Assembly (NCBI GenBank): GCA_008015835.1
Contig: SSGH01000008.1
Span: forward strand, 69,165-133,164
Length of the DNA stretch: 64,000 bases
Direction: 5' to 3'
From: Lysobacter sp.
Lineage (GTDB): Bacteria; Pseudomonadota; Gammaproteobacteria; Xanthomonadales; Xanthomonadaceae
Shown here: positions 11,561 to 22,591 of the stretch, in pieces
How positions within the stretch are numbered: position 1 is the first letter of the stretch
Layout of the letters: each line of letters begins with the position of its first letter
The notes under the pieces: model-generated
What the model saw: the letters and a program-made list of their open reading frames with translations, nothing else
Database searches by the model: none
Told to the model about the DNA's origin: nothing
Program-made: the position numbers and the translations under genes

Positions 11561-11989
11561 TCAGCCGGAGGAGACGGTCGCCGTTGCTTCGAACGCCTGC
11601 CGCACGCTGTCGCGCGCCAGCACCAACAGCGTGAACACGCCGAGCATCGTGCCGAACGGCACCTGCAGCACGTTCAGGCCGGCGACGACCATGCAGAACG
11701 TGCGATGGCGCCGCGCTTTCAGAAAGCGCGCCGACATGACATTCAGGGTCATGCCGATCAAGCACATCACGGCCATGATCACGTAGATCCAGATGAAGAT
11801 GTCCATGAACGCCTCTGGCGGTGGGTTGTTGCCGCCTTTGGCGTGCTCCATCGACATCATCGTGTTCAAAAACGTGTAGTGCAGCGCGACGAAGCTCAGA
11901 CCGCAGACGCCCAAGCCCGCGAAAACGTAATGGAAAATCGTCAGCAGTCGCAGATGGTCGCGATCCTGCGTGGTCAACGAATCGTTCAT
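11561..11989 (-). CDS. Hypothetical membrane protein (3-4 TM)
   Basis: DHLRLLTIFHYV, hydrophobic helices, PFGTMLGVFTLLVL; start inferred at MNDSLT. Confidence 0.75.
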   Translation of the reverse strand: MNDSLTTQDRDHLRLLTIFHYVFAGLGVCGLSFVALHYTFLNTMMSMEHAKGGNNPPPEAFMDIFIWIYVIMAVMCLIGMTLNVMSARFLKARRHRTFCMVVAGLNVLQVPFGTMLGVFTLLVLARDSVRQAFEATATVSSG

Positions 11990-12183
11990 CGTGCGCTCTC
12001 CTGTATGCGTCGCGGGCATCATCGCGCCCACGGCGCAGGCGGTCAACGGCGCAAGCGGTCATTAACAAAAGCGCCCAAAAGCGCTGGTTTGCCGGATTTG
12101 GCGCGAACGAGGCGAACCAGCGACCGGCGAGCGCCGATCGCGTTCGTTTGCCGTCCGCATCGACAACGATCGCGCGGTCTGCG

Positions 12184-13641
12184 CTACCCGTTGGGCAGGG
12201 TGCGATCCGCGTGACGTTTCGCGATATTTCCGCGCCGCTCGCGGGCGACGACGATGCGATCGACGACGACGAACGCCAACAAGGCGGCGCCCGCCAGCGG
12301 AAACAGCGCAGCCAGCGCGATCATCGCCACGATCATCGAGCGCGGCAGCGCGTGATCGCGCGCGTCGGGAACGCCCATCCGCCCGCTCGGCCGGCGTCGC
12401 CACCACATCACGATGCCCGCGAACACGGCGACGAGCAGCCCGACGCAGATCGCGAGCGCGAGCAAGCGATTCGGTTCGCCGAATTGCCGGCCCATGTGCG
12501 CCATCACGCCCCATTCCACCGCGCGTCCCAGCGGGCTGTAATCGCGCCAGCCGATGTCCTGCAGCACGCGGCCGGAATACGGATCGACATACAGCGTGCG
12601 TTGATCCTGCGCGCGGTCCGGTATCAGACTGAGCGTGTACACATCGCGTTCGCCTTCGGGATAGAACACGCGCAGACGCGGCCCGATGCGGGTGAGGCCG
12701 CGCCGTTCCGCGATCCGCATGACGTCCTGCAGCGCGATGCGAGCGGCGCCCGTTCGCGTCGCTTGCGGCGGCGCGCGGCCCGATTCGCGCACCGCCCAGG
12801 GCAATGCGGCGGTGTCGTCGCGGTCGCGATGTTGTGCATGCGGGTCGACGCCCGCGGCTGTCTCGACGGTGCCGAGCGAATCGAGCGTCGGCGCTGCGCT
12901 GAAGTTCGGCGTCGGTCGCGTCGCTTCGCTCAGGGTGCCGAGTTTCGCGAGTTGTTCGCCCCAGAATCCCGACCACGGCAGCCCCGACAGCACCAGAAAC
13001 ACGATCCCGACGGCCAGCAGCGCCGAGGGGATCGCGTGCAGATCGCGCCAGAACGCGCGGCCCGTCGCGCCCAGACGCGGCACCAGCACGCCGCGCACCC
13101 GCCAACGCGCGGGCCACCACAGCCACAGCCCGGTCAGCGTCATGATCAGCGCGCCGCTGGCGGTGAGCTCCACGAACCAGTCGCCGGGCCGGCCGAGCAG
13201 CAGCTCGCCGTGCAGATCGGAGATCACGTGCATCAATCGGCGATGTTCGGGAATCGAACCGGTCACGCGCGCTGTCCACGGATCGACCAAGACCGCGCGC
13301 CGCGCGCCGCGTGGATCGACCACGGCCCAGGCGGCGACATGCGTACGATCGTGCGGCAATACCACCGACGCCAGTCGCGCGCCCGGAAACGCGCGCCGCA
13401 CCGCCGATTCTTGATCGGCGATGGGCGCGCGTCGTTCGCCGGGTTCCACGTTCATCAATTCGCCGTACCAAGCGCGCTCGATCTCGCTGTCGTAGAGATA
13501 GAGCGCGCCGGTGATCGCCAGCACCGACAGCACCGGCGCGATCAACAGGCCCATGTAGAAATGCCAACGCCAGATCGCGCGATACGATTTCTTGCGCGGG
13601 CCGGTGTCGATCGCGTCGGCGGTGTCGGCGGCGTCGTTCAT
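12184..13641 (-). CDS. PepSY-associated TM helix domain protein
   Basis: YRAIWRWHFYMGL, DLHGELLLG, RDLHAIPS, WGVMAHMG; directly downstream of a TonB receptor. Confidence 0.9.
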   Translation of the reverse strand: MNDAADTADAIDTGPRKKSYRAIWRWHFYMGLLIAPVLSVLAITGALYLYDSEIERAWYGELMNVEPGERRAPIADQESAVRRAFPGARLASVVLPHDRTHVAAWAVVDPRGARRAVLVDPWTARVTGSIPEHRRLMHVISDLHGELLLGRPGDWFVELTASGALIMTLTGLWLWWPARWRVRGVLVPRLGATGRAFWRDLHAIPSALLAVGIVFLVLSGLPWSGFWGEQLAKLGTLSEATRPTPNFSAAPTLDSLGTVETAAGVDPHAQHRDRDDTAALPWAVRESGRAPPQATRTGAARIALQDVMRIAERRGLTRIGPRLRVFYPEGERDVYTLSLIPDRAQDQRTLYVDPYSGRVLQDIGWRDYSPLGRAVEWGVMAHMGRQFGEPNRLLALAICVGLLVAVFAGIVMWWRRRPSGRMGVPDARDHALPRSMIVAMIALAALFPLAGAALLAFVVVDRIVVARERRGNIAKRHADRTLPNG

Positions 13642-13645
13642 GGCC

Positions 13646-15757
13646 TCAGAACGCCCAGTTCAGACGCAGACTGACATGGCGCGGATCGCCCGGCAGCACG
13701 TTGAACACATTGCCCGACGCGGCGTAGTAGCGTTTGTCGAGCGCGTTGTTCACGGTGAGATCGGCGGACCACGCGTCGCGGGCGTAATGCACGCCGAGAT
13801 CGACCAGACCGTAACCGGGCAGGCGCACATCGCTGCCGTTCACCAAGCGCCGCTCCGATACGCCGTAGACGCCGCCTTGCAACGACCAGGGCGTGCCGGC
13901 GAAGGCGTAACGCGCGCGGACGAGGCCGGTGAGTTTGGGGGTGTCGCCGAGCTCGGCGTCCTGGTCGCCGTCGTAACTGCGCGTGACCTTGCCGTCGAGT
14001 CTCGCCAGACCCCAGTTCAAGGCGAGGTTCTCGCCCAGCCGCGAATCGCCTTCCAGCTCGATGCCGCGCACGCGCTGTTCGCCGTCCTGCACGCTGAAAT
14101 CCGGATTGGTCGGGTCGGTGGTCAGCGCATCGATGCGGCGCAGATCGAAGACCGCGGCGCTGAGGCGATGCCGCTCGGTGTTCCAACGCAGGCCGGCTTC
14201 GACTTGTCGCGAACGTTCCGGGTCGAACGGTTGGCCGTTCGCGCCGCGGGCGCCGAGCGTACTTTCGGTATCGAAGCCTGTGTTCACGCCGCCGAACAGC
14301 GACCAGCGGTCGGAGAGGCGAACGTTCGTCGCCAACTGCCACGTGGTCGCCGAGACTTCGGAGCTGTCGCGCACGCCGTCGTTAGTTTGCGTGTAGTCGA
14401 AGCGGCTATGACGCACGCCCACGATCGCGTCCCACGTCGGCGTCAGCGCGATCAAGTCCTGCGCGTAGAGCGCGGTGCCGTCCCCGAGGCCGGCGAAGTC
14501 GAAACCGAATACGGTGGTCGGCGCGACCGCAGGATAAGTGTAGGTCGGACGATAGATATCGACCGCGCCGACGTTGGTCAGGTTGTACTGCAGGAAGGTG
14601 CTGTCTTCGCGGCTGGCTTCCACGCCCAGCAACACTTGATGCCCGACCGAACCGGTGTCGAAGCGGCCCGACAGGTCCAATTGCGCGATCTGGTAATCGT
14701 CGTCTTCCGTGCCGAAGCGGCCGTTGCGGTTCACGGTGGTGCCGTTGGCCTGCATCGCGCGCAGACGGATCTGGCTGAAGTCGGTGCGGAAACCCTGATA
14801 TTGATAACGCGGCGTCAGCGTCCACGCATCGGACAGCCGAATATCCGCCCACAGTTGGATGAGCGGCGAATCGGCGGTGAGCGGACGGATCGACGGCTCG
14901 CCGAGGAAGACATCGCGCGAGACGCGGCCCTGGCCGTTGTTCGCCACCGTGCCGATCACCGGCAGGCCGGAATAGCCCAGGGTTTCGCGTTCGATGTACT
15001 CCGACAACCAATGCACCGTGACCGCATCCGACACAGTCCAACGCGCGGCCAGCGCGATGTTGTTGCGGTCGATGTCCTGACGATCGACGAAGGTGCCCGA
15101 ACGTTCGATTTCGCCGGTCAGACGCGCGGCGAAACGGCCGTCGCCACCGAGGCCGCCGGTCAGGTCGAAGCCGGCGACGCGTTCGTCGTCCTCGCCGACG
15201 CGCACCCAGGCGCTGCCGCCGAAAGCGTCTTCGGGGCGTTTGGTGATGATGCTGACGATGCCGCCGATCGCCGACTGCCCGTACAGCACCGACGACGGGC
15301 CTTTCAGCACTTCCACGCGATCGACGTTCGACATCGCCGAGGCATCGATGTCTTCGTAATAGCGCTGACGAATGCCGTTGCGCATTTGATCGGCGAGAAA
15401 ACCGCGCACTTTCAAGCTGAAACTCTGATAGCGCGACACGCGCGATTGCCCGGCGTTCGCGCTGGGCACGTTGCGCAGCAGGTCGCCGACGCTGCGTGCG
15501 CCTTGCGCTTGAATCTGTTCGCCGGAGATCACCTGCACGCTTTGCGGCATGCGCGACAGCGGGATGCCGGATTTCTCGCCGAAGGCATCGTCGGTCTTGG
15601 TGCCGGTCACGACGATGGTGTCGAGGGTGTCGGCGGACGCGTCGTTCGTGTCGTCGGCGGTGGGCGTCGCCGACATCGCCGGAAAAGATAAGCCGCAGGC
15701 GATGGCCAAGGCGAGACCGGCGCGGCGTGGGAGGAGGTTGCGTCGAGTGAGGTTCAT
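13646..15757 (-). CDS. TonB-dependent receptor
   Basis: Signal peptide, TonB-box-like DTIVVTG, plug RVEVLKGPSSVLYGQ..GGIVSIITK, C-terminal NNALDKRYY...LRLNWAF. Confidence 0.93.
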   Translation of the reverse strand: MNLTRRNLLPRRAGLALAIACGLSFPAMSATPTADDTNDASADTLDTIVVTGTKTDDAFGEKSGIPLSRMPQSVQVISGEQIQAQGARSVGDLLRNVPSANAGQSRVSRYQSFSLKVRGFLADQMRNGIRQRYYEDIDASAMSNVDRVEVLKGPSSVLYGQSAIGGIVSIITKRPEDAFGGSAWVRVGEDDERVAGFDLTGGLGGDGRFAARLTGEIERSGTFVDRQDIDRNNIALAARWTVSDAVTVHWLSEYIERETLGYSGLPVIGTVANNGQGRVSRDVFLGEPSIRPLTADSPLIQLWADIRLSDAWTLTPRYQYQGFRTDFSQIRLRAMQANGTTVNRNGRFGTEDDDYQIAQLDLSGRFDTGSVGHQVLLGVEASREDSTFLQYNLTNVGAVDIYRPTYTYPAVAPTTVFGFDFAGLGDGTALYAQDLIALTPTWDAIVGVRHSRFDYTQTNDGVRDSSEVSATTWQLATNVRLSDRWSLFGGVNTGFDTESTLGARGANGQPFDPERSRQVEAGLRWNTERHRLSAAVFDLRRIDALTTDPTNPDFSVQDGEQRVRGIELEGDSRLGENLALNWGLARLDGKVTRSYDGDQDAELGDTPKLTGLVRARYAFAGTPWSLQGGVYGVSERRLVNGSDVRLPGYGLVDLGVHYARDAWSADLTVNNALDKRYYAASGNVFNVLPGDPRHVSLRLNWAF

Positions 15758-16032: not shown

Positions 16033-16548
16033 TTATCGGCTGCCCATCTCGCGGACTTCGAGTTTCACCTCGCGCGTGCCGGCGCGTTCGAAGCGCAACG
16101 TCGCGGTAACGGTTTCGCCGCGCACGAAGGGATGCTTCGGGCCGATGAACATCAGGTGATAGCCGCCGGGTTTGAGCTGCGTGCTTGTCTTTGCCGGAAT
16201 TTCCAGTCCGTCGTCGAGTTTGCGCATGCGCATCACGCCGTCGGTCATGCTCATCTCGTGGATTTCCACGCGCTCGGCATCCGGGCTGGTCGCCGACAGC
16301 AGACGATCGGCGCGCGCGTCGTCGTTGCGCACGGTGAGGAACCCGCCGGCCACCGGCGCTTTCGGCGGCGTGGCGCGCGTCCATGCGTTTTCGATGGCGA
16401 GCATGGCCTTGGCTTTCGCCTTGGGGCCGGCGGCGAACGTCGCGGTGGACAACGCCAGCGAAGCGGCGGTCACAGCGACGATCACAGCGGCGATGCCGAA
16501 GCGGGCACGGAGGGCGACGCGTGGGGAAGGGGAATGCATGGCGTTCAT
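16033..16548 (-). CDS. Copper chaperone PCu(A)C
   Basis: AWTRATPP, ERVEIHEM...GVMRM, LKPGGYHLM (H-x-M...H-x-M Cu site). Confidence 0.92.
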   Translation of the reverse strand: MNAMHSPSPRVALRARFGIAAVIVAVTAASLALSTATFAAGPKAKAKAMLAIENAWTRATPPKAPVAGGFLTVRNDDARADRLLSATSPDAERVEIHEMSMTDGVMRMRKLDDGLEIPAKTSTQLKPGGYHLMFIGPKHPFVRGETVTATLRFERAGTREVKLEVREMGSR

Positions 16549-16679
16549 AGTTCGATCTCGATGTCGTCTAACAGGGTGTGGGAATGGACGCGGCGGCCGT
16601 CGCGTTCGGCCAGCGCCGACAGCAGAAACACGGCCCAGCCGATCAGCCAGAACAGCGCGAAGAAAAAGAAGGCTTCCAT
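16545..16679 (-). CDS. Unannotated 44-aa single-TM peptide (MEAFFFFALFWLIGWAVFLLSALAERDGRRVHSHTLLDDIEIEL)
   Basis: Below the ORF-track cutoff. RBS-like AAGGGAGAG upstream; begins 3 nt after the DJ-1 stop; its TGA overlaps the PCuAC ATG. Confidence 0.7.
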   Translation of the reverse strand: MEAFFFFALFWLIGWAVFLLSALAERDGRRVHSHTLLDDIEIEL

Positions 16680-16682
16680 CGC

Positions 16683-17522
16683 TCACTCTCCCTTCGTCGG
16701 CTGCGTATCGCGCGCGATCCGTCGTGCGCGTGCGATGAACCCGGGGAACATGCCGCCGATCATGTCGACGACGGCCTGCGGCGCGGTGGCGGGCGTTCCC
16801 GCATCGAACGGCGGCTTCGGCGCGTACTCGGCGAGCAATTGCACGCCTTCGGCGTAACTGCGGTCGCGCAGTTCGGCGACCATCGTCAAACCGAGATCGA
16901 GCCCTGCGGAGACGCCCGCGCCGGTCACGCGATTGCGATCCCGCACGACGCGTTCGTCGACCGGGATCGCGCCGAAGTCGCGAAGCACGTCGCGCGCGAC
17001 CCAATGCCCGGTGGCGCGATAGCCGGTGAGCAGACCCGCGCGCGCCAGCAGCAACGAACCGGTGCACACCGAAGTCACCCATTTGGCGCGCGCGCCGCGA
17101 TCGGCGACGAACGCGACCAGCGCCGGGTCTTCCATCGCGTCGAGCACGCCGCCGCCGCTGCCGGGCACGAACAGCACGTCGAGCTGCGAGGGGCATTCGT
17201 CCAGCGTCGCCGTCGGTACGATCGACAGCCCGGTGTCGCTGGTGACCGGTGCGTGCGTCTTCGCCACCAGATGCACGGTCGCGCCCATCAGATTCGCGAA
17301 GAAATACTGAGGCCCGACCAGATCCAGCGCGGTGAACCCAGGGTAGAGCAGCATCGCGATCTTGTCGGTGCCCATCCACGAGGCCGGCATCGCGCTCATA
17401 TCGTGGTCGGGCGGCGCTTCGCGCGTCGCCGGAGTTTCGGCGGCGCTCGTCGCCGCCGCGCCGGCCAAGAGCGAAGCGGCCGAAGAGGTCGCGGCGATCA
17501 AAAAACGTCTGCGGTTGGACAT
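16683..17522 (-). CDS. Tat-signal DJ-1/PfpI family protein, isonitrile (isocyanide) hydratase-like
   Basis: MSNRRRFL Tat motif; LDLVGP (Asp), VTSVCTGS (Cys-Thr), EYAPKPPFDAGTP as in InhA/ICH; DHDMSAM linker. Confidence 0.85.
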   Translation of the reverse strand: MSNRRRFLIAATSSAASLLAGAAATSAAETPATREAPPDHDMSAMPASWMGTDKIAMLLYPGFTALDLVGPQYFFANLMGATVHLVAKTHAPVTSDTGLSIVPTATLDECPSQLDVLFVPGSGGGVLDAMEDPALVAFVADRGARAKWVTSVCTGSLLLARAGLLTGYRATGHWVARDVLRDFGAIPVDERVVRDRNRVTGAGVSAGLDLGLTMVAELRDRSYAEGVQLLAEYAPKPPFDAGTPATAPQAVVDMIGGMFPGFIARARRIARDTQPTKGE

Positions 17523-17531
17523 GACGACTCC

Positions 17532-17931
17532 TCAGTAATCCACGCGAAACGTCAGCAGCGCGTTGCGCGACGCGCCGGGCTGATTCCAGTCCGTCACGTG
17601 CTGATGGCTGCCGGTGAAGTACGCGCGATCGAACACGTTGTTGATGTTGAACTGCACCTGCGCTTTCGCATCGCCCAGCGGGAATCGATACGCCGCCATC
17701 GCATCGTTCTGCGGCGTACGACGGACGCAGGCCGATCACTTCGACCGTGTCGAGAGACTCCGGCGAGGTTTCGGGGGAAGCCTGCGAAGGCGAGGGGGCC
17801 TCCGCTGCGGATGCTGAGGGGGAGGTTTGAGCGAGGGCGGACAGCGCGGGAATCAGCGCGGGAATCAGCGCGGCCGTCACGGCCACGGACAACAGCGATG
17901 CGCGCGGCATCGCCTTCGGTGCGAATGGCAT
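17532..17931 (-). pseudogene. Internally deleted TonB-dependent receptor (N-terminus fused out of frame to C-terminus)
   Basis: Signal peptide plus SLDTVEVIGLRPSYAAE, then in another frame DAMAAYRF...QVQFNINNVFDRAYF...RNALLTFRVDY-stop (17532-17534). Plug and barrel are missing. Confidence 0.85.
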
Positions 17932-18000: not shown

Positions 18001-18429
18001 TCAGACCGTGAGCGGCGGGCCGCGAGAACCGAGGCCGAGCGGGTAATGCCAAATGGGCGCAGGAACGCCGCGAGCGGGCGATGCGACCGCGACGACGGGC
18101 GCGAGAGCGATCGCCGACGTCGGAACGGGAACGAGGGAAGCGGCGGCGATCGCGCAGTAATCGCAGTCGTCGCCGGTGTGCGGCGGCAGCGGCGTTTCGC
18201 TGTCGGTCCGCAGCGAGAAGCCGGCCGCTTCGACCGCTGCCGCCGTCGCGTCGTACGCCAGTCCTTTCGCGGTGCACATCGCGCCCAGCGCGGCCGCGAT
18301 CTCGCGATTACCGTCTTTGGGCGCCGTCTCCTGCGCGAGGCGCCCGATGCTCGGAAGCAGCGTGAGCGCCAGCATCGCCGCGAGGGCGAGCCGGCTCATG
18401 CAGCGCTGGAAGGCGTGATACCGAGACAT
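18001..18429 (-). CDS. DUF2946 / CruR-like copper-responsive leader protein
   Basis: N-terminal hydrophobic segment, CDYC (CxxC), C-terminal GSRGPP; heads a TBDR/PCuAC/PepSY operon. Confidence 0.85.
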   Translation of the reverse strand: MSRYHAFQRCMSRLALAAMLALTLLPSIGRLAQETAPKDGNREIAAALGAMCTAKGLAYDATAAAVEAAGFSLRTDSETPLPPHTGDDCDYCAIAAASLVPVPTSAIALAPVVAVASPARGVPAPIWHYPLGLGSRGPPLTV

Positions 18430-18571: not shown

Positions 18572-19183
18572 TCACTTCTTGCAGGGAATCGTGTTGCCGT
18601 TCGGGTCGTAGCAGGTCGCGGTGCGGGTCAAGCCATCGTCCTTGTTGCCGCTGACCGAGGCTTCGTAGCTGTTGCCGCTGCGGCCGGTGGCGTCGACGCT
18701 GCGATCGAGTTGGCCGTTCGCGTACTGCGTGTCGGCGTTGTAGCTCCCGCCTTGCGCGCCGGCGACGTTGGTCGTGCGTCCGCCGCTGACGGTGCCGTCG
18801 GCGCTGCGGACGAATTCGCCGTTGGTGCTGCCGCTGCTGTTGGCACCGTTCCATTGCGCGCCGCTGTGATGCTGCAGGCTGCCGTCGGCGTTGCGCGCGG
18901 TGCTGCCGGCGCGCGCGCCGGTACCGCCGTTCGGGCCGCGATAGGCGCCGCCGCTGACGACTTTGCCGTTGCCTTGGCCGTCGGTGGTCGCAGCGCGGCC
19001 GCGGATCGCGCCGCCGCCGTTGGGGCCGCGCACCGCCGACGCGCGACCGGCGCCGACGCCGCCCTCGGGGTTGGCGTGTGCGCCGCGGGCTTTGACGCGG
19101 CCGGCGGCGTCGGCCGGCGGCGCGGCGAGCGAAAGCGCGAGGCCGAGGGCCAGCGCGGGCAGGGCGAGAAGCGTGGTGTTCAT
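18572..19183 (-). CDS. Secreted Gly/Ser/Asn-rich repetitive protein, hypothetical
   Basis: Signal peptide; repeats of RGPNGG, NADG/SADG; C-terminal TCYDPNGNTIPC. Confidence 0.8.
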   Translation of the reverse strand: MNTTLLALPALALGLALSLAAPPADAAGRVKARGAHANPEGGVGAGRASAVRGPNGGGAIRGRAATTDGQGNGKVVSGGAYRGPNGGTGARAGSTARNADGSLQHHSGAQWNGANSSGSTNGEFVRSADGTVSGGRTTNVAGAQGGSYNADTQYANGQLDRSVDATGRSGNSYEASVSGNKDDGLTRTATCYDPNGNTIPCKK

Positions 19184-19289: not shown

Positions 19290-19838
19290 TCAACCGCGGG
19301 CTTCCCACATGCCGATCAGGCGTTCGCGCAGTTGCGCGAAACGATCCAGCCGTTCGGCCATCGCCGCGCGGACTTTCGCCTGCTCGGCGGGCGTCAGCGA
19401 TTCGTAGAGGTCGAGCTGGCGGTCGCGCAGCGCGCGCGCTTCGGCCATGTGCGCATCGACGCGGCGCTGGGATTCGTTCGAGAACGCGCGCAGATCGGGC
19501 GAGGATTGATCCAGCAGCGTGCGGAATTCCTGCATGCCGTCGCGCAAGTCTTCGCGGCCGACGCGGCGCAGCGCAATGGCTTCCTGGCGCAGCGCATCCC
19601 ACTGCTTGGCGTGCGCGCCGGCGATGCCGATCTGCGCGGCGGTGGGCGGCGCGAAGCGTTCGGCGTCGGCGAAGCGCGGCGCGGCGACGGCGGTGGCGAC
19701 GGTGAGCGCCGCGGCGACGGCGGCGACCAGATACAGCGATTTCGGCGAGAAGGCGCGGCGGGATTGCGCGCCGCTCCGAACGGTGCGGGCTTGAACGGTG
19801 CGGGTCTGGACGGTGTGGGGCGAGCGGGAGCCGGTCAT
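19290..19838 (-). CDS. Spy/CpxP-like periplasmic helical protein
   Basis: Signal/TM segment; SLTPAEQAKV (LTxxQ-like); all-helical; divergent from the TCS. Confidence 0.6.
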   Translation of the reverse strand: MTGSRSPHTVQTRTVQARTVRSGAQSRRAFSPKSLYLVAAVAAALTVATAVAAPRFADAERFAPPTAAQIGIAGAHAKQWDALRQEAIALRRVGREDLRDGMQEFRTLLDQSSPDLRAFSNESQRRVDAHMAEARALRDRQLDLYESLTPAEQAKVRAAMAERLDRFAQLRERLIGMWEARG

Positions 19839-20054
19839 GGCGAGGTCCTTTGCGTTGGGGGCGGGCGTCGGGCGACGCCGTGGACGCAGAATGCGGAAAG
19901 CCCGAGCGCGAAGGGTGTCGGAGCCGCGTCGGCGTGCAAGCGAAGATGTCGCGATGGCGCGGCGGACACATTCGTTTACAACTCGGCCCGCGCCGCGGGC
20001 GCGCGCGCGGCGATCGCCGCTTGTCGCGGACGCCGCGGCGGCGACAATGGCGGC

Positions 20055-20807
20055 ATGAACGTTTCTACCGCCATCCCCGCCGCCGCGTCCGCCCCCTGCG
20101 TCCTGGTCGTCGACGACGACGAGCGCCTGCGCGCGCTGTTGCTGCGCTACTTGGAACAACAGGGCATGCAGCCGCTGGGCGCGGCCGATGCGCGCGAACT
20201 CGATCGACAACTCGCGCGGCATCACGTCGATCTGATCGTGCTGGACCTGATGCTGCCCGGCGAAGACGGCCTCTCGATTTGCCGTCGCCTGCGCGGCCAA
20301 GGCGTGGAGACGCCGATCGTGATGTTGACCGCGAAAGGCGACGAGGTGGATCGCATCGTCGGCTTGGAGATCGGCGCCGACGATTACTTGCCAAAACCCG
20401 GCAATCCGCGCGAATTGGTCGCGCGGATTCGCGCGGTGCTGCGCCGCGGGCGACCCGCGCCCGGCGCGCCGAAGGAAGACGGTGGGCGCATCGCGTTCGG
20501 CGCCTGCGTGCTGGATCTCGGCGCGCGCACGCTGCATCGCGACGGTCGCGAATTGCGCATGACCACCGGCGAATTCGCGGTGCTGGCGGCGCTGGTGCAG
20601 CGGCCGCGGCAAGCGTTGACGCGCGATCAGTTGATGAGCGCTGCGCGCGGGCGCGAACACGATGCGTTCGAGCGCAGCATGGACGTGATGGTCAGCCGGC
20701 TGCGCAAATTGGTCGAACAGGACCCGAAACATCCGCGCTGGCTGCAAACCGTGTGGGGCACCGGCTACGTGTTCGTGCCCGACGACGCGGCGGAGCCCCG
20801 CGCATGA
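20055..20807 (+). CDS. ompR: OmpR-family response regulator
   Basis: VLVVDDD, LIVLDLMLPGEDG, MLTAKG, GADDYLPKP, winged helix LQTVWGTGY. Confidence 0.85.
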   Translation: MNVSTAIPAAASAPCVLVVDDDERLRALLLRYLEQQGMQPLGAADARELDRQLARHHVDLIVLDLMLPGEDGLSICRRLRGQGVETPIVMLTAKGDEVDRIVGLEIGADDYLPKPGNPRELVARIRAVLRRGRPAPGAPKEDGGRIAFGACVLDLGARTLHRDGRELRMTTGEFAVLAALVQRPRQALTRDQLMSAARGREHDAFERSMDVMVSRLRKLVEQDPKHPRWLQTVWGTGYVFVPDDAAEPRA

Positions 20808-22150
20808 GCGGCGCGTCGCGCGCGGCGTCGAAGCGCGCGCGCATCTTCGCGGCGCTGTCCGATGCGTTCGGACGGCTGCACACGCGATTGCTGCTGCTGT
20901 TGGCGGCGGTGGTGATCGCATCGGTCGCCGCCACGGCGTTCGCGTTCGGTTTGACCACGCGCGAAAGCAGCGCGGAACGCGCGGCGCGCATGCTGCATGC
21001 GCAGGTGATCGCCGCCGACGCGCTGTTGGCCGAGTCGGACCGCGTCGCGGCCGAGGCGCAGTTGCGTCGGCTCGGCCTGCGGTGGCGCGACCGTTTGCCG
21101 GAGGAGACGCGCGCCGAGATGCCCTGGCTGCGCAAAATCGAAACCCGCGCCGCTGCGCGTCTGCCCGGCCGCGCGATGCGGCTGAGCGGTTCGCCGCCGC
21201 GGCTGTGGGTGCGCGACCGCAGCGGCGACGGCTGGATCGGCGTTCCGCTGCTGGCCGGCGCCGAACCGTTCAAACGCGGCTTGGCGCTGTCGTTGCTCGC
21301 CATCGTGACGCTGGTGCTGGCGGCGGCGGCGATCTTCGCGCGTACCCTGACCCGTCCGCTGCGACGGCTGGCCGACGTCGCCCCCGCCATCGTCGCCGGC
21401 GAGGCGCCGCCGCCGCTGCGGTTCGCCAGCGCGGAAATGCGCGAACTGCAGGATTCCTTGGCCCAGGCCGCGGACGCGACCCGCGCCGTCGCCCGCGACC
21501 GCGAATTGATGCTGGCCGGGCTGTCGCACGACATGCGCACGCCGCTGGCGCGGCTGCGCTACGGCTTGGCGCTGATGGAAGGCGACGGCGATGCCGAGGG
21601 CCGCGAAGCGATGGAGCGCGATATCGACGAGATCGACGCGATCGTCGGCCAGTTCATCGATTACGTCCGCGACGGTCGCGACGAGGCCGAGACCGAGGTC
21701 GATTTGGCCGAACTTCTGCGCGAACAGGAGGATGCGGAGGCCCGCGCGGGCCGCGACTGGGCGCTCGTCGCGCCCGAATGCGCCGCGCTGCACGGGCGGC
21801 CGCTGGCGCTGCGCCGCGCCATCGGCAATCTGGTCGCGAATGCGGTCAAACACGGCGCCGCGCCGTTCGAACTGCAGCTCGAGGCCTGTCCGCCCGACCC
21901 CGAATCCGGTCTGGCCGAAGGCTGGCGACTGCGCGTGAGCGACCGCGGCCCCGGTGTGCCGCAGGAGCGGCTGAACGACCTCGGCCGCCCGTTTCACCGC
22001 GTGGACACCGCGCGCGGCACCCCCGGCAGCGGTCTGGGACTGGCTAGCGTCGCCCGCGTGGCCGCCGTCCACCGCGGCGCGCTGCGCCTGCGTAACCGCG
22101 AGGGCGGCGGATTGGAAGCCGAGCTGCGGCTGGCGTTCCGGCCGGACTGA
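20804..22150 (+). CDS. EnvZ-like sensor histidine kinase
   Basis: Two TM segments, HAMP, H-box LSHDMRTPL, N-box NLVANAVKHG, DRGPG, GSGLGLA; ATGA overlap with the regulator. Confidence 0.9.
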   Translation: MSGASRAASKRARIFAALSDAFGRLHTRLLLLLAAVVIASVAATAFAFGLTTRESSAERAARMLHAQVIAADALLAESDRVAAEAQLRRLGLRWRDRLPEETRAEMPWLRKIETRAAARLPGRAMRLSGSPPRLWVRDRSGDGWIGVPLLAGAEPFKRGLALSLLAIVTLVLAAAAIFARTLTRPLRRLADVAPAIVAGEAPPPLRFASAEMRELQDSLAQAADATRAVARDRELMLAGLSHDMRTPLARLRYGLALMEGDGDAEGREAMERDIDEIDAIVGQFIDYVRDGRDEAETEVDLAELLREQEDAEARAGRDWALVAPECAALHGRPLALRRAIGNLVANAVKHGAAPFELQLEACPPDPESGLAEGWRLRVSDRGPGVPQERLNDLGRPFHRVDTARGTPGSGLGLASVARVAAVHRGALRLRNREGGGLEAELRLAFRPD

Positions 22151-22219: not shown

Positions 22220-22591
22220 CCCCTCATCCGGCCTTCGGCCACCTTCTCCCCGCATGGCGGGGAGAAGGGAGTTCGATGCGAGAACGCGCGATCCGAACTG
22301 CGCCAACCGAACGACATAACCCGAACCGCACGACCCGAAGTGCCTCCCGGAATCCTGCGACCCCAATCCCGAATCCCGAATCCCGAATCCCGAATCCCGA
22401 ATCCCGAATCCCGAATCCCGAATCCCGAATCCCGAATCCTGCGCTAAGAACCCCACTATTCGGACCGCACGCATCGCCCCCCCCTACGATCCCGATTGGG
22501 TATTCCAGGCTAGGCGATCTCGCGCTAAAGGCATCACCCCTCCCTTCTCCCCGCCGCGCGGGGAGAAGGTGGCCGAAGGCCGGATGAGGGG
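22220..22591. repeat. Composite element: two inverted 50-bp REP-like arms flanking a heptamer microsatellite
   Basis: CCCCTCATCCGGCCTTCGGCCACCTTCTCCCCGC..GGCGGGGAGAAGGG at 22220-22269, with its reverse complement at 22542-22591 (48/50 identical). Confidence 0.9.
22364..22440. repeat. (GAATCCC)n tandem repeat, 9 perfect plus 2 imperfect units
   Basis: Read directly from the sequence. Confidence 0.95.

Follow-up and report, generated by a model that had tools for sequence, protein, structure and literature searches.

How copper passes the outer membrane of Gram-negative bacteria is poorly understood, and the natural ligands of copper-regulated TonB-dependent transporters (TBDTs) are still unidentified according to a 2026 study of CrtA (PMC12914433). 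The locus described here raises the question whether such a ligand could be an isonitrile that is taken apart in the periplasm. It lies in a stretch of 64,000 nucleotides from Lysobacter sp. (contig SSGH01000008.1, positions 69,165 to 133,164), which we call the window and number from its own first letter. On the minus strand, at 16683..17522, the window carries the gene of a 279-residue DJ-1/PfpI protein with a predicted twin-arginine translocation (Tat) leader, belonging to the isocyanide hydratase (ICH) subfamily. The initial annotation had proposed that this enzyme could destroy the ligand of an imported copper-isonitrile complex and pass the metal to the chaperone PCuAC, or else detoxify copper-sequestering isonitrile antibiotics. 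We find that its exported relatives are strongly coupled to TonB-dependent receptors (TBDRs) across lineages, and that this coupling is lacking in cytoplasmic ICHs.

Since the window has a G+C content of 66%, long spurious open reading frames (ORFs) are common in it. That the ICH-like frame is a real gene is supported by its homologues, which number more than 4,800 with sizes of 265-290 residues. Compared with the closest relative, its dN/dS ratio was 0.15, close to the values of the neighbouring genes. The protein was classified by profile search, PDB sequence search, AlphaFold2 modelling and Foldseek. Pfam DJ-1_PfpI (PF01965) matched residues 54-216 with 100.1 bits against a cut-off of 26.6. 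The best PDB match was 3EWN (E = 1.5e-83, 62% identity), and the entries of the Pseudomonas fluorescens ICH, PfICH (3NON, 6NI4 and others), followed with E ~1e-58 over residues 54-255 and 51.8% identity. In the HMMER alignment to 3NON and 6NI4, the LDLVGP segment aligned with LDLTGP of PfICH, which places Asp67 (codon 17322-17324) on Asp17. The segment VTSVCTGS has the same letters as that of PfICH, so that the catalytic Cys153-Thr154 (17061..17066, minus strand) corresponds to Cys101-Thr102, and Val204 stands at the strained Ile152. Asp67, Cys153 and Thr154 were invariant across 61 homologues. ICHs are told apart from other DJ-1 proteins by an Asp near the nucleophile, where Glu is usual (PMC12570138). 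The ICH-type C-terminal extension EYAPxPPFxAG is present at residues 232-244 as EYAPKPPFDAGTP.

The AlphaFold2 model of the mature protein had a mean predicted local distance difference test score (pLDDT) of 95.7. When this model was submitted to Foldseek, 3EWN was found with template-modelling (TM) scores of 0.89/0.93 and eighteen PfICH entries, including 3NON and 6NI6, with ~0.85/0.93 and a root-mean-square deviation (rmsd) of ~1.0 Å over 219 columns; the next family beyond ICH was represented by 3MGK at 0.67. Because sequence, catalytic residues and fold agree, we conclude that the window protein is a member of the ICH structural subfamily.

The predicted Tat signal peptide comprises residues 1-28 (17439..17522, minus strand). 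It has SNRRRFL at residues 2-8 (S-N-R-R-R-F-L-I), then a hydrophobic region and AATSSAASLLAGAAATSAA, which ends in TSAA and is followed by E. This layout fits that of Tat leaders, in which a twin-arginine motif of the (S/T)RRxFLK type and a hydrophobic region precede a cleavage site of the AxA type. Two adjacent arginines were found inside the first 15 residues in 109 of the 120 homologues; in an alignment of 30 diverse homologues R5 was invariant and R4 at least 90% conserved. In the profile search the leader gave a weak match below the cut-off to PF10399 (UCR_Fe-S_N, the Rieske TAT signal; E = 0.002), and the TIGR01409 Tat-signal model was not among the matches listed for the protein. The leader suggests that the protein folds first and then reaches the periplasm through the Tat pathway.

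Between the leader and the first β-strand lies a second conserved element, an N-terminal arm with the sequence HDMSAMPASWMG at residues 40-51 (17370..17405, minus strand), which from the alignment and the model is a candidate Cu(I)-binding His/Met motif. Its consensus is HDMSxMPxxWxG, and H[DE]M...P..W occurred just ahead of the first β-strand in 114 of the 120 homologues. Among the 30 diverse members, H40, P46 and W49 were invariant and D41, M42, S43 and G51 at least 90% conserved. AlphaFold2 predicted the arm as ordered (pLDDT ~91 at mature residues 11-20). His and Met made up 10.5% of the 20 residues ahead of the core as compared to 4.3% of the core (binomial p ~1e-13), and receptor-adjacent members had on average 3.3 His or Met residues in this stretch versus 1.5 in the others (Mann-Whitney p = 2e-4); both p-values were computed on related sequences and overstate independence. 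Other exported lineages had different His/Met-rich segments at the same place (EKEHMAHMQGM, QHMRRMMEM, YMYMPD, EMDMPND and HSMPEKP). The arm also resembles HEMSM, with which the Cu(I) site of the adjacent PCuAC begins, and may bind copper. All features quoted in the initial annotation, namely the twin-arginine leader SNRRRFL, the segment PPDHDMSAMP (residues 37-46), the Asp of LDLxGP, VTSVCTGS and the C-terminal extension, were recovered in the 279-residue frame, for which it had named no strand. The segment that it had called a linker is better described as a conserved motif than as a spacer, since its residues are conserved across the homologues.

To place the protein among its relatives, a maximum-likelihood tree of 109 sequences was calculated. 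With 99% support, the window protein and 3EWN fell into an exported clade, in which 53 of the 55 rows had signal peptides. The other side of this split held the cytoplasmic PfICH clade and, at its base, several further exported lineages; PfICH itself was in a cytoplasmic clade of 30-32 rows with a support of 96-97. Across distant taxa the enzymes kept at least 55% identity (55-65%). In one case, the protein of Phyllobacterium myrsinacearum (locus L009) was ~90% identical to the P. syringae 3EWN protein over 205 columns, which points to a recent horizontal transfer of the module.

The gene neighbourhoods were then surveyed at 80 loci with one genome per species. In 13 of the 22 exported-clade loci a TBDR gene was the immediate same-strand neighbour of the ICH-like gene, and in none of the 39 loci of cytoplasmic ICHs (Fisher p = 7.6e-8). 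Mostly the receptor was upstream, with a short or overlapping junction. The 13 loci came from Burkholderiaceae, Reyranellaceae, Nitrobacteraceae, Hyphomicrobiaceae, Alcaligenaceae, Phyllobacteriaceae, Phreatobacteraceae, Salinisphaeraceae and Methylococcaceae, and the receptor-then-enzyme order was also found in four of four further diverse members. TonB receptor domains ranked first in the Pfam tally of neighbouring genes. Judged from gene order, a TBDR gene followed by an exported ICH-like gene appears to be a two-gene module, which here lies within a copper-starvation operon. It is quite probable, from these neighbourhoods, that the exported enzyme is functionally tied to TonB-dependent import.

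Copper genes accompanied the pair in several lineages. PCuAC was present within 8 kb in 5 of the 22 exported-clade loci. In Phreatobacter (L013:11395-12291), the exported ICH-like gene had PCuAC and a TBDR gene upstream and MbnP (E = 3.7e-38) immediately downstream, followed by a probable MbnH. By its gene content this locus adds another copper context, independent of the first and different in kind. A locus of Variovorax sp. 770b2 (L100) had DUF2946 at the head of the operon, and the locus L101 had two PCuAC genes and TonB. A different arrangement was seen in methanotrophs (L018, L019, L037; Methylococcaceae) and at L007 and L014. There the adjacent receptor was a transducer of the FecA type, accompanied by genes for FecR and a sigma factor, and the enzyme arm had a different His/Met segment, e.g. 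AHQAFM...KMHG.

In the window, the ICH-like gene is part of a minus-strand series in the order DUF2946, a remnant of a first receptor gene (TBDR1), ICH-like gene, 44-residue ORF, PCuAC, a second receptor (TBDR2), PepSY_TM and a 161-residue membrane protein. The leading gene (18001..18429) encodes a CruR-like protein of 142 residues (Pfam PF11162, E = 1.6e-7). It begins with a signal sequence and carries CDYC (residues 89-92) as well as RGPP (136-139), after which only three residues remain. The gap from CxxC to RGPP is 43 residues. As a hallmark of CruR, the copper-sensing leader peptide of Bordetella, ~45 ± 2 residues separate the two motifs, and the second one stands three residues ahead of the C-terminus (PMC9426467). 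The ORF has these hallmarks in its sequence; RGPP replaces RAPP, and we assume that it is active in arrest. From the CruR hallmarks, copper-driven repression of the operon is therefore predicted.

Directly downstream of the ICH-like gene is an ORF of 44 residues with a single transmembrane segment (16545..16679; MEAFFFFALFWLIGWAVFLLSALAERDGRRVHSHTLLDDIEIEL), which was read from the sequence. It begins 3 nucleotides past the ICH-like stop codon and overlaps the PCuAC start in ATGA; it is translationally coupled to PCuAC. Its protein was 100% identical in the closest relative (dN = 0), where a neighbouring gene had 89% nucleotide identity. It was called as a gene in L082-L088 and was present in all syntenic relatives. 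The ORF was considered as a CcoS/FixS-like protein, and this was rejected as no Pfam match was obtained even at E = 10. The PCuAC chaperone for periplasmic Cu(I) (171 residues, 16033..16548; Pfam PF04314, E = 3.7e-40, 136.6 bits) has an intact Cu(I) motif, H-x10-M-x22-H-x-M (HEMSMTDGVMRM...YHLM), with a spacing of 22 as compared to 21 in H(M)X10MX21HXM. TBDR2 (703 residues, 13646..15757) has the Pfam plug and barrel domains and is of the siderophore-receptor class. The FoxB/CrpH-like PepSY_TM membrane protein (485 residues, 12184..13641; Pfam PF03929, E = 1.8e-60) has an additional weak cytochrome-b561 match and is syntenic in all relatives. The syntenic block ends with the 161-residue membrane protein (11561..12046), which gave a weak DUF5657 match and no other family; the protein at the same position in L082 was 82% identical. 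The copper-uptake operon that the initial annotation had seen here is borne out by the CruR-type leader, the PCuAC with its intact motif and PepSY_TM, and this gene content indicates that the copper-acquisition operon is genuine.

In relatives the order was DUF2946, TBDR1, ICH-like gene, 44-residue ORF, PCuAC, TBDR2 and PepSY_TM. It was observed in a relative with 91% identity of the ICH-like protein, in a second lineage at 82% and in all five other carriers of the orthologue in the genus; including the window genome, the orthologue was present in 6 of 25 genus genomes. In the 82% relative (L086:15288-15758), an avidin-family protein (Pfam E = 6.7e-18) follows right after PepSY_TM and is unrelated to the 161-residue protein found there in the window. 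None of the 299 genomes sampled across the class had an exported-clade orthologue, and four had cytoplasmic-type matches only; a co-occurrence test at the class level was uninformative for this reason. The module is rare and patchy in genomes, though its relatives are abundant in metagenomes.

Upstream of the operon, the divergent two-component system at 20055-22150 was considered as a copper sensor of the CopRS/CusRS type. It was identified as OmpR/EnvZ, with 359 bits for the OmpR equivalog (cut-off 331) and with heavy-metal sensor models far under their cut-offs. Between it and the copper operon are two minus-strand genes that are both syntenic in the closest relative, one for a Gly/Asn-rich secreted protein of 203 residues without a family (18572-19183) and one for a periplasmic protein with a weak LTXXQ (CpxP/Spy-like) match (19290-19850). 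The gap after the EnvZ-like kinase gene holds a tandem DNA repeat (~22345-22440) that reads DSGFGIR 3-4 times in one frame and falls in two overlapping spurious ORFs.

The class of the two receptors bears on what is imported. The top NCBIfam match of both was the siderophore receptor model TIGR01783, with 339 bits for the TBDR1 of a relative and 319 bits for TBDR2 (cut-off 223.5). Both matched FhuA, FoxA, CntO and FetA with E values of 1e-46 to 1e-59, and FetA, CntO, FoxA and FhuA were the best PDB matches of TBDR2. Membership of the CrtA family, represented by CrtA of Bordetella pertussis (PDB 9RVQ/9RVX), was rejected since 9RVQ matched only in part (TBDR2, E = 1.2e-21, residues 57-266; the relative's TBDR1, 7.1e-21, residues 416-705). 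An OprC/NosA-type receptor was rejected as well, TIGR01778 being absent from the 25 best NCBIfam matches of either receptor. As both receptors are of the TIGR01783 class and not of the OprC type, a chelated ligand rather than a free ion is suggested.

From these data we propose that the receptor would import the copper complex of an isonitrile-type ligand that is probably made by other organisms. Cys153, helped by Asp67, would then hydrate the isonitrile carbon to a formamide, which would not bind copper. The His/Met arm (HDMSxMP) would take the released Cu(I) and hand it to PCuAC for cuproenzymes that face the periplasm. PCuAC serves cuproenzymes that face the periplasm, which makes this compartment a sensible place for the release. 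Because the ICH catalytic set is intact, hydration of an isonitrile is the most likely chemistry. We infer both the substrate and the hand-over to PCuAC. This specific mechanism, periplasmic hydration of an imported copper-isonitrile ligand with transfer of the copper to PCuAC, is in our view an even call. Its extension is more tentative and falls somewhat short of even: Gram-negative soil bacteria might run a periplasmic 'chalkophore-stripping' relay, in which a TBDT imports foreign copper-isonitrile complexes (of actinomycete diisonitriles or fungal xanthocillins), a Tat-exported hydratase destroys the ligand, and the arm passes the copper to PCuAC and on to heme-copper oxidases.

Several observations weigh against the copper-isonitrile proposal. 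First, the partner receptor gene TBDR1 is largely deleted in the window genome. Three-frame translation and tblastn with the intact 731-residue TBDR1 of a relative revealed a remnant at 17532..17931 (minus strand), in which residues 1-70 with the signal peptide and TonB box are joined out of frame to residues 675-731; ~1.8 kb encoding the plug and barrel are deleted. In relatives TBDR1 has 717-731 residues, and it is full-length in L082-L093. Because of this deletion, the module may be impaired in the window genome. The start codon of the remnant also opens a stop-free frame of 632 residues that crosses the ICH-like gene and the 44-residue ORF out of frame and then reads PCuAC in frame. Its product, if there is one, would be a chimera of signal peptide, nonsense and PCuAC, and the frame may depress translation of the ICH-like gene or occlude its start site.

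Second, the isonitrile synthase PvcA/IsnA (PF05141) had no match in the window genome; the search was validated by 2 matches in 300 class genomes. A ligand produced by the organism itself was therefore rejected, also because the single TauD homologue of the genome (contig 37) is not on any contig with a non-ribosomal peptide synthetase. Any isonitrile ligand would thus be foreign, which fits piracy, but the missing synthase also fits a substrate that is not an isonitrile. Third, the tree places the window protein outside the clade of biochemically characterised ICHs, in the sister clade, so its substrate specificity may differ. The solved structure of this clade, 3EWN, is known from structural genomics without a functional assignment, and the label 'cyclohexyl-isocyanide hydratase' on several clade members in databases rests on homology. 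Fourth, about three quarters of the sampled exported-clade loci have no obvious copper marker within 8 kb, and the metal could be a different one there. Finally, the adjacent receptors were only 25-28% identical across taxa. One orthologous receptor family co-evolving with the enzyme is not supported: orthologues of TBDR1 (48% identity) were found in Burkholderiales only, and the others had 25-28% identity to TBDR1 and TBDR2. With regard to the initial annotation, the assignment as ICH-like stands for the structural subfamily and not for the clade of characterised enzymes. Its idea of periplasmic unloading agrees with the subfamily, the conserved leader and arm, the copper operon and the receptor coupling, and is weakened by the position in the sister clade and by the deletion of TBDR1.

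These points leave room for the same architecture acting on another substrate. The Cys nucleophile would then process a different TBDT-imported compound. An amidase or a hydrolase of the thioimidate type could, for instance, act on a nutrient or on a metallophore that is not an isonitrile, in analogy to the periplasmic siderophore esterases, and the metal could be iron or zinc in many lineages. Apart from the sister-clade position, this would agree with the generic siderophore-receptor class of both receptors and with the lack of a nearby PCuAC, DUF2946 or PepSY gene at most exported-clade loci. In other loci, genes for α/β-hydrolases, for a radical-SAM protein and for FecR together with a sigma factor were among the neighbours. 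Enzymes of the DJ-1 superfamily also perform diverse reactions (PMC12570138). However, the catalytic set that is specific for ICHs, including Asp for Glu, is invariant across the clade, the protein has 52% identity to PfICH and superimposes with an rmsd of 1.0 Å, and copper is indicated by the His/Met arm and by the CruR, PCuAC and MbnP contexts. We therefore regard another substrate as rather unlikely.

Another explanation keeps the isonitrile and drops the import. A defensive periplasmic hydratase could detoxify xanthocillin or rhabduscin-like antibiotics before they hit periplasm-facing heme-copper enzymes or cause copper starvation. ICH is generally seen as protection from natural products of the isocyanide type (PMC10792529). 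As isonitriles sequester copper, it would make sense to express the enzyme with the other genes at copper starvation, and the lack of isonitrile synthases in the genome agrees with this account too. A pure detoxifier, however, needs neither translational coupling to an energy-dependent importer nor co-inheritance with it, whereas the receptor-then-enzyme order is kept across alpha-, beta- and gammaproteobacterial families, and the cytoplasmic ICHs, which are presumed detoxifiers, are receptor-adjacent at none of their 39 loci. This makes defence alone improbable. The protein might also act without catalysis, as a periplasmic Cu(I)-binding or thiol-redox chaperone upstream of PCuAC whose ligands are Cys153 and the His/Met arm. 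This would agree with the arm's likeness to PCuAC, with the copper-related operon and with the copper binding reported for human DJ-1 via its cysteines. It is highly improbable, however, because the full catalytic set is kept, including Asp67 and the position of the strained Ile152, although simple metal binding does not need it, and because the arm has lost its His in the 3EWN subclade.

If the copper-isonitrile proposal is true, copper-regulated TBDTs would have isonitriles as one natural class of ligands, and the exported ICH-like enzyme is a candidate release enzyme for Gram-negative bacteria. The pair of receptor and exported ICH in CruR, PCuAC and MbnP contexts provides a concrete candidate for the ligand chemistry of copper passage. 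The proposal would also assign a function to a large clade of proteins, which has thousands of members in metagenomes and 3EWN as its one orphan crystal structure, and the relay would bear on microbial rivalry over soil copper.

How does the window module compare with known systems? Periplasmic enzymes that process siderophores beside their receptors are known from PfeE with PfeA and from IroE, where the receptor imports the metallophore and the enzyme breaks the ligand to free the metal. The likeness to the window module is one of analogy, not homology, as those enzymes are esterases of the α/β-hydrolase fold and share neither chemistry nor metal with it. Closer by sequence is PfICH/InhA (P. 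fluorescens and P. putida N19-2, PDB 3NON, EC 4.2.1.103), which shares with the window protein the DJ-1 fold, the C-terminal extension, the Cys-Thr elbow and Asp for Glu, but has no signal peptide and no N-terminal arm; its clade was never found beside a TonB receptor. The closest solved relative is 3EWN, a ThiJ/PfpI protein of Pseudomonas syringae from the same exported clade, whose construct starts with the equivalent arm PDMGPDMNKVPWMG. It differs in having Cys-Ser for Cys-Thr and Pro/Arg in the arm where the His stands, and at the locus of its near-identical Phyllobacterium relative the receptor is downstream and not upstream.

The operon can be compared with CruR-CrtA-CrpH of Bordetella pertussis. 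Both have the DUF2946 leader with CxxC and R(A/G)PP at the right spacing, followed by a TBDT and PepSY_TM, and in some cases PCuAC (PMC9426467, PMC12914433). The receptors of the window differ in that they are not of the CrtA family, and no DJ-1 or ICH gene is named in the main text of the two B. pertussis papers (PMC9426467, PMC12914433).

The proposed chemistry has its counterpart in the diisonitrile metallophores. Rv0052 of Mycobacterium tuberculosis turns kupyaphore isonitriles into formamides, a step proposed to release the metal (PMC8872721), and ICH-catalysed metal release from diisonitrile metallophores has been published for Rv0052 (PMC8872721) and for Streptomyces thioluteus and is restated in PMC13674278. 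Formamide analogues of the mycobacterial diisonitrile chalkophores neither bound copper nor rescued growth (PMC13674278). These chalkophores supply heme-copper oxidases, with isonitrile hydratase as the proposed release step (PMC8872721, PMC13674278). The statement of the initial annotation that no such system is described has to be narrowed accordingly. ICH-driven metal release was already published; a periplasmic, Tat-exported and receptor-coupled ICH was not found in the literature, where a periplasmic ICH, or ICH together with TonB, turned up only in incidental co-mentions. For Rv0052 and the S. thioluteus ICH (kupyaphores and SF2768), the proposed logic is the same, in that conversion of isonitrile to formamide frees the metal; here the likeness is drawn from their descriptions. 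Those enzymes are described as intracellular and belong to the producers of the ligand, whereas the window enzyme is predicted to be periplasmic, is tied to an outer-membrane importer and PCuAC, and belongs to a genome without a detectable isonitrile synthase. In comparison with these systems, the window module would represent ICH-mediated metal release that takes place in the periplasm instead and is linked to import by a TBDT.

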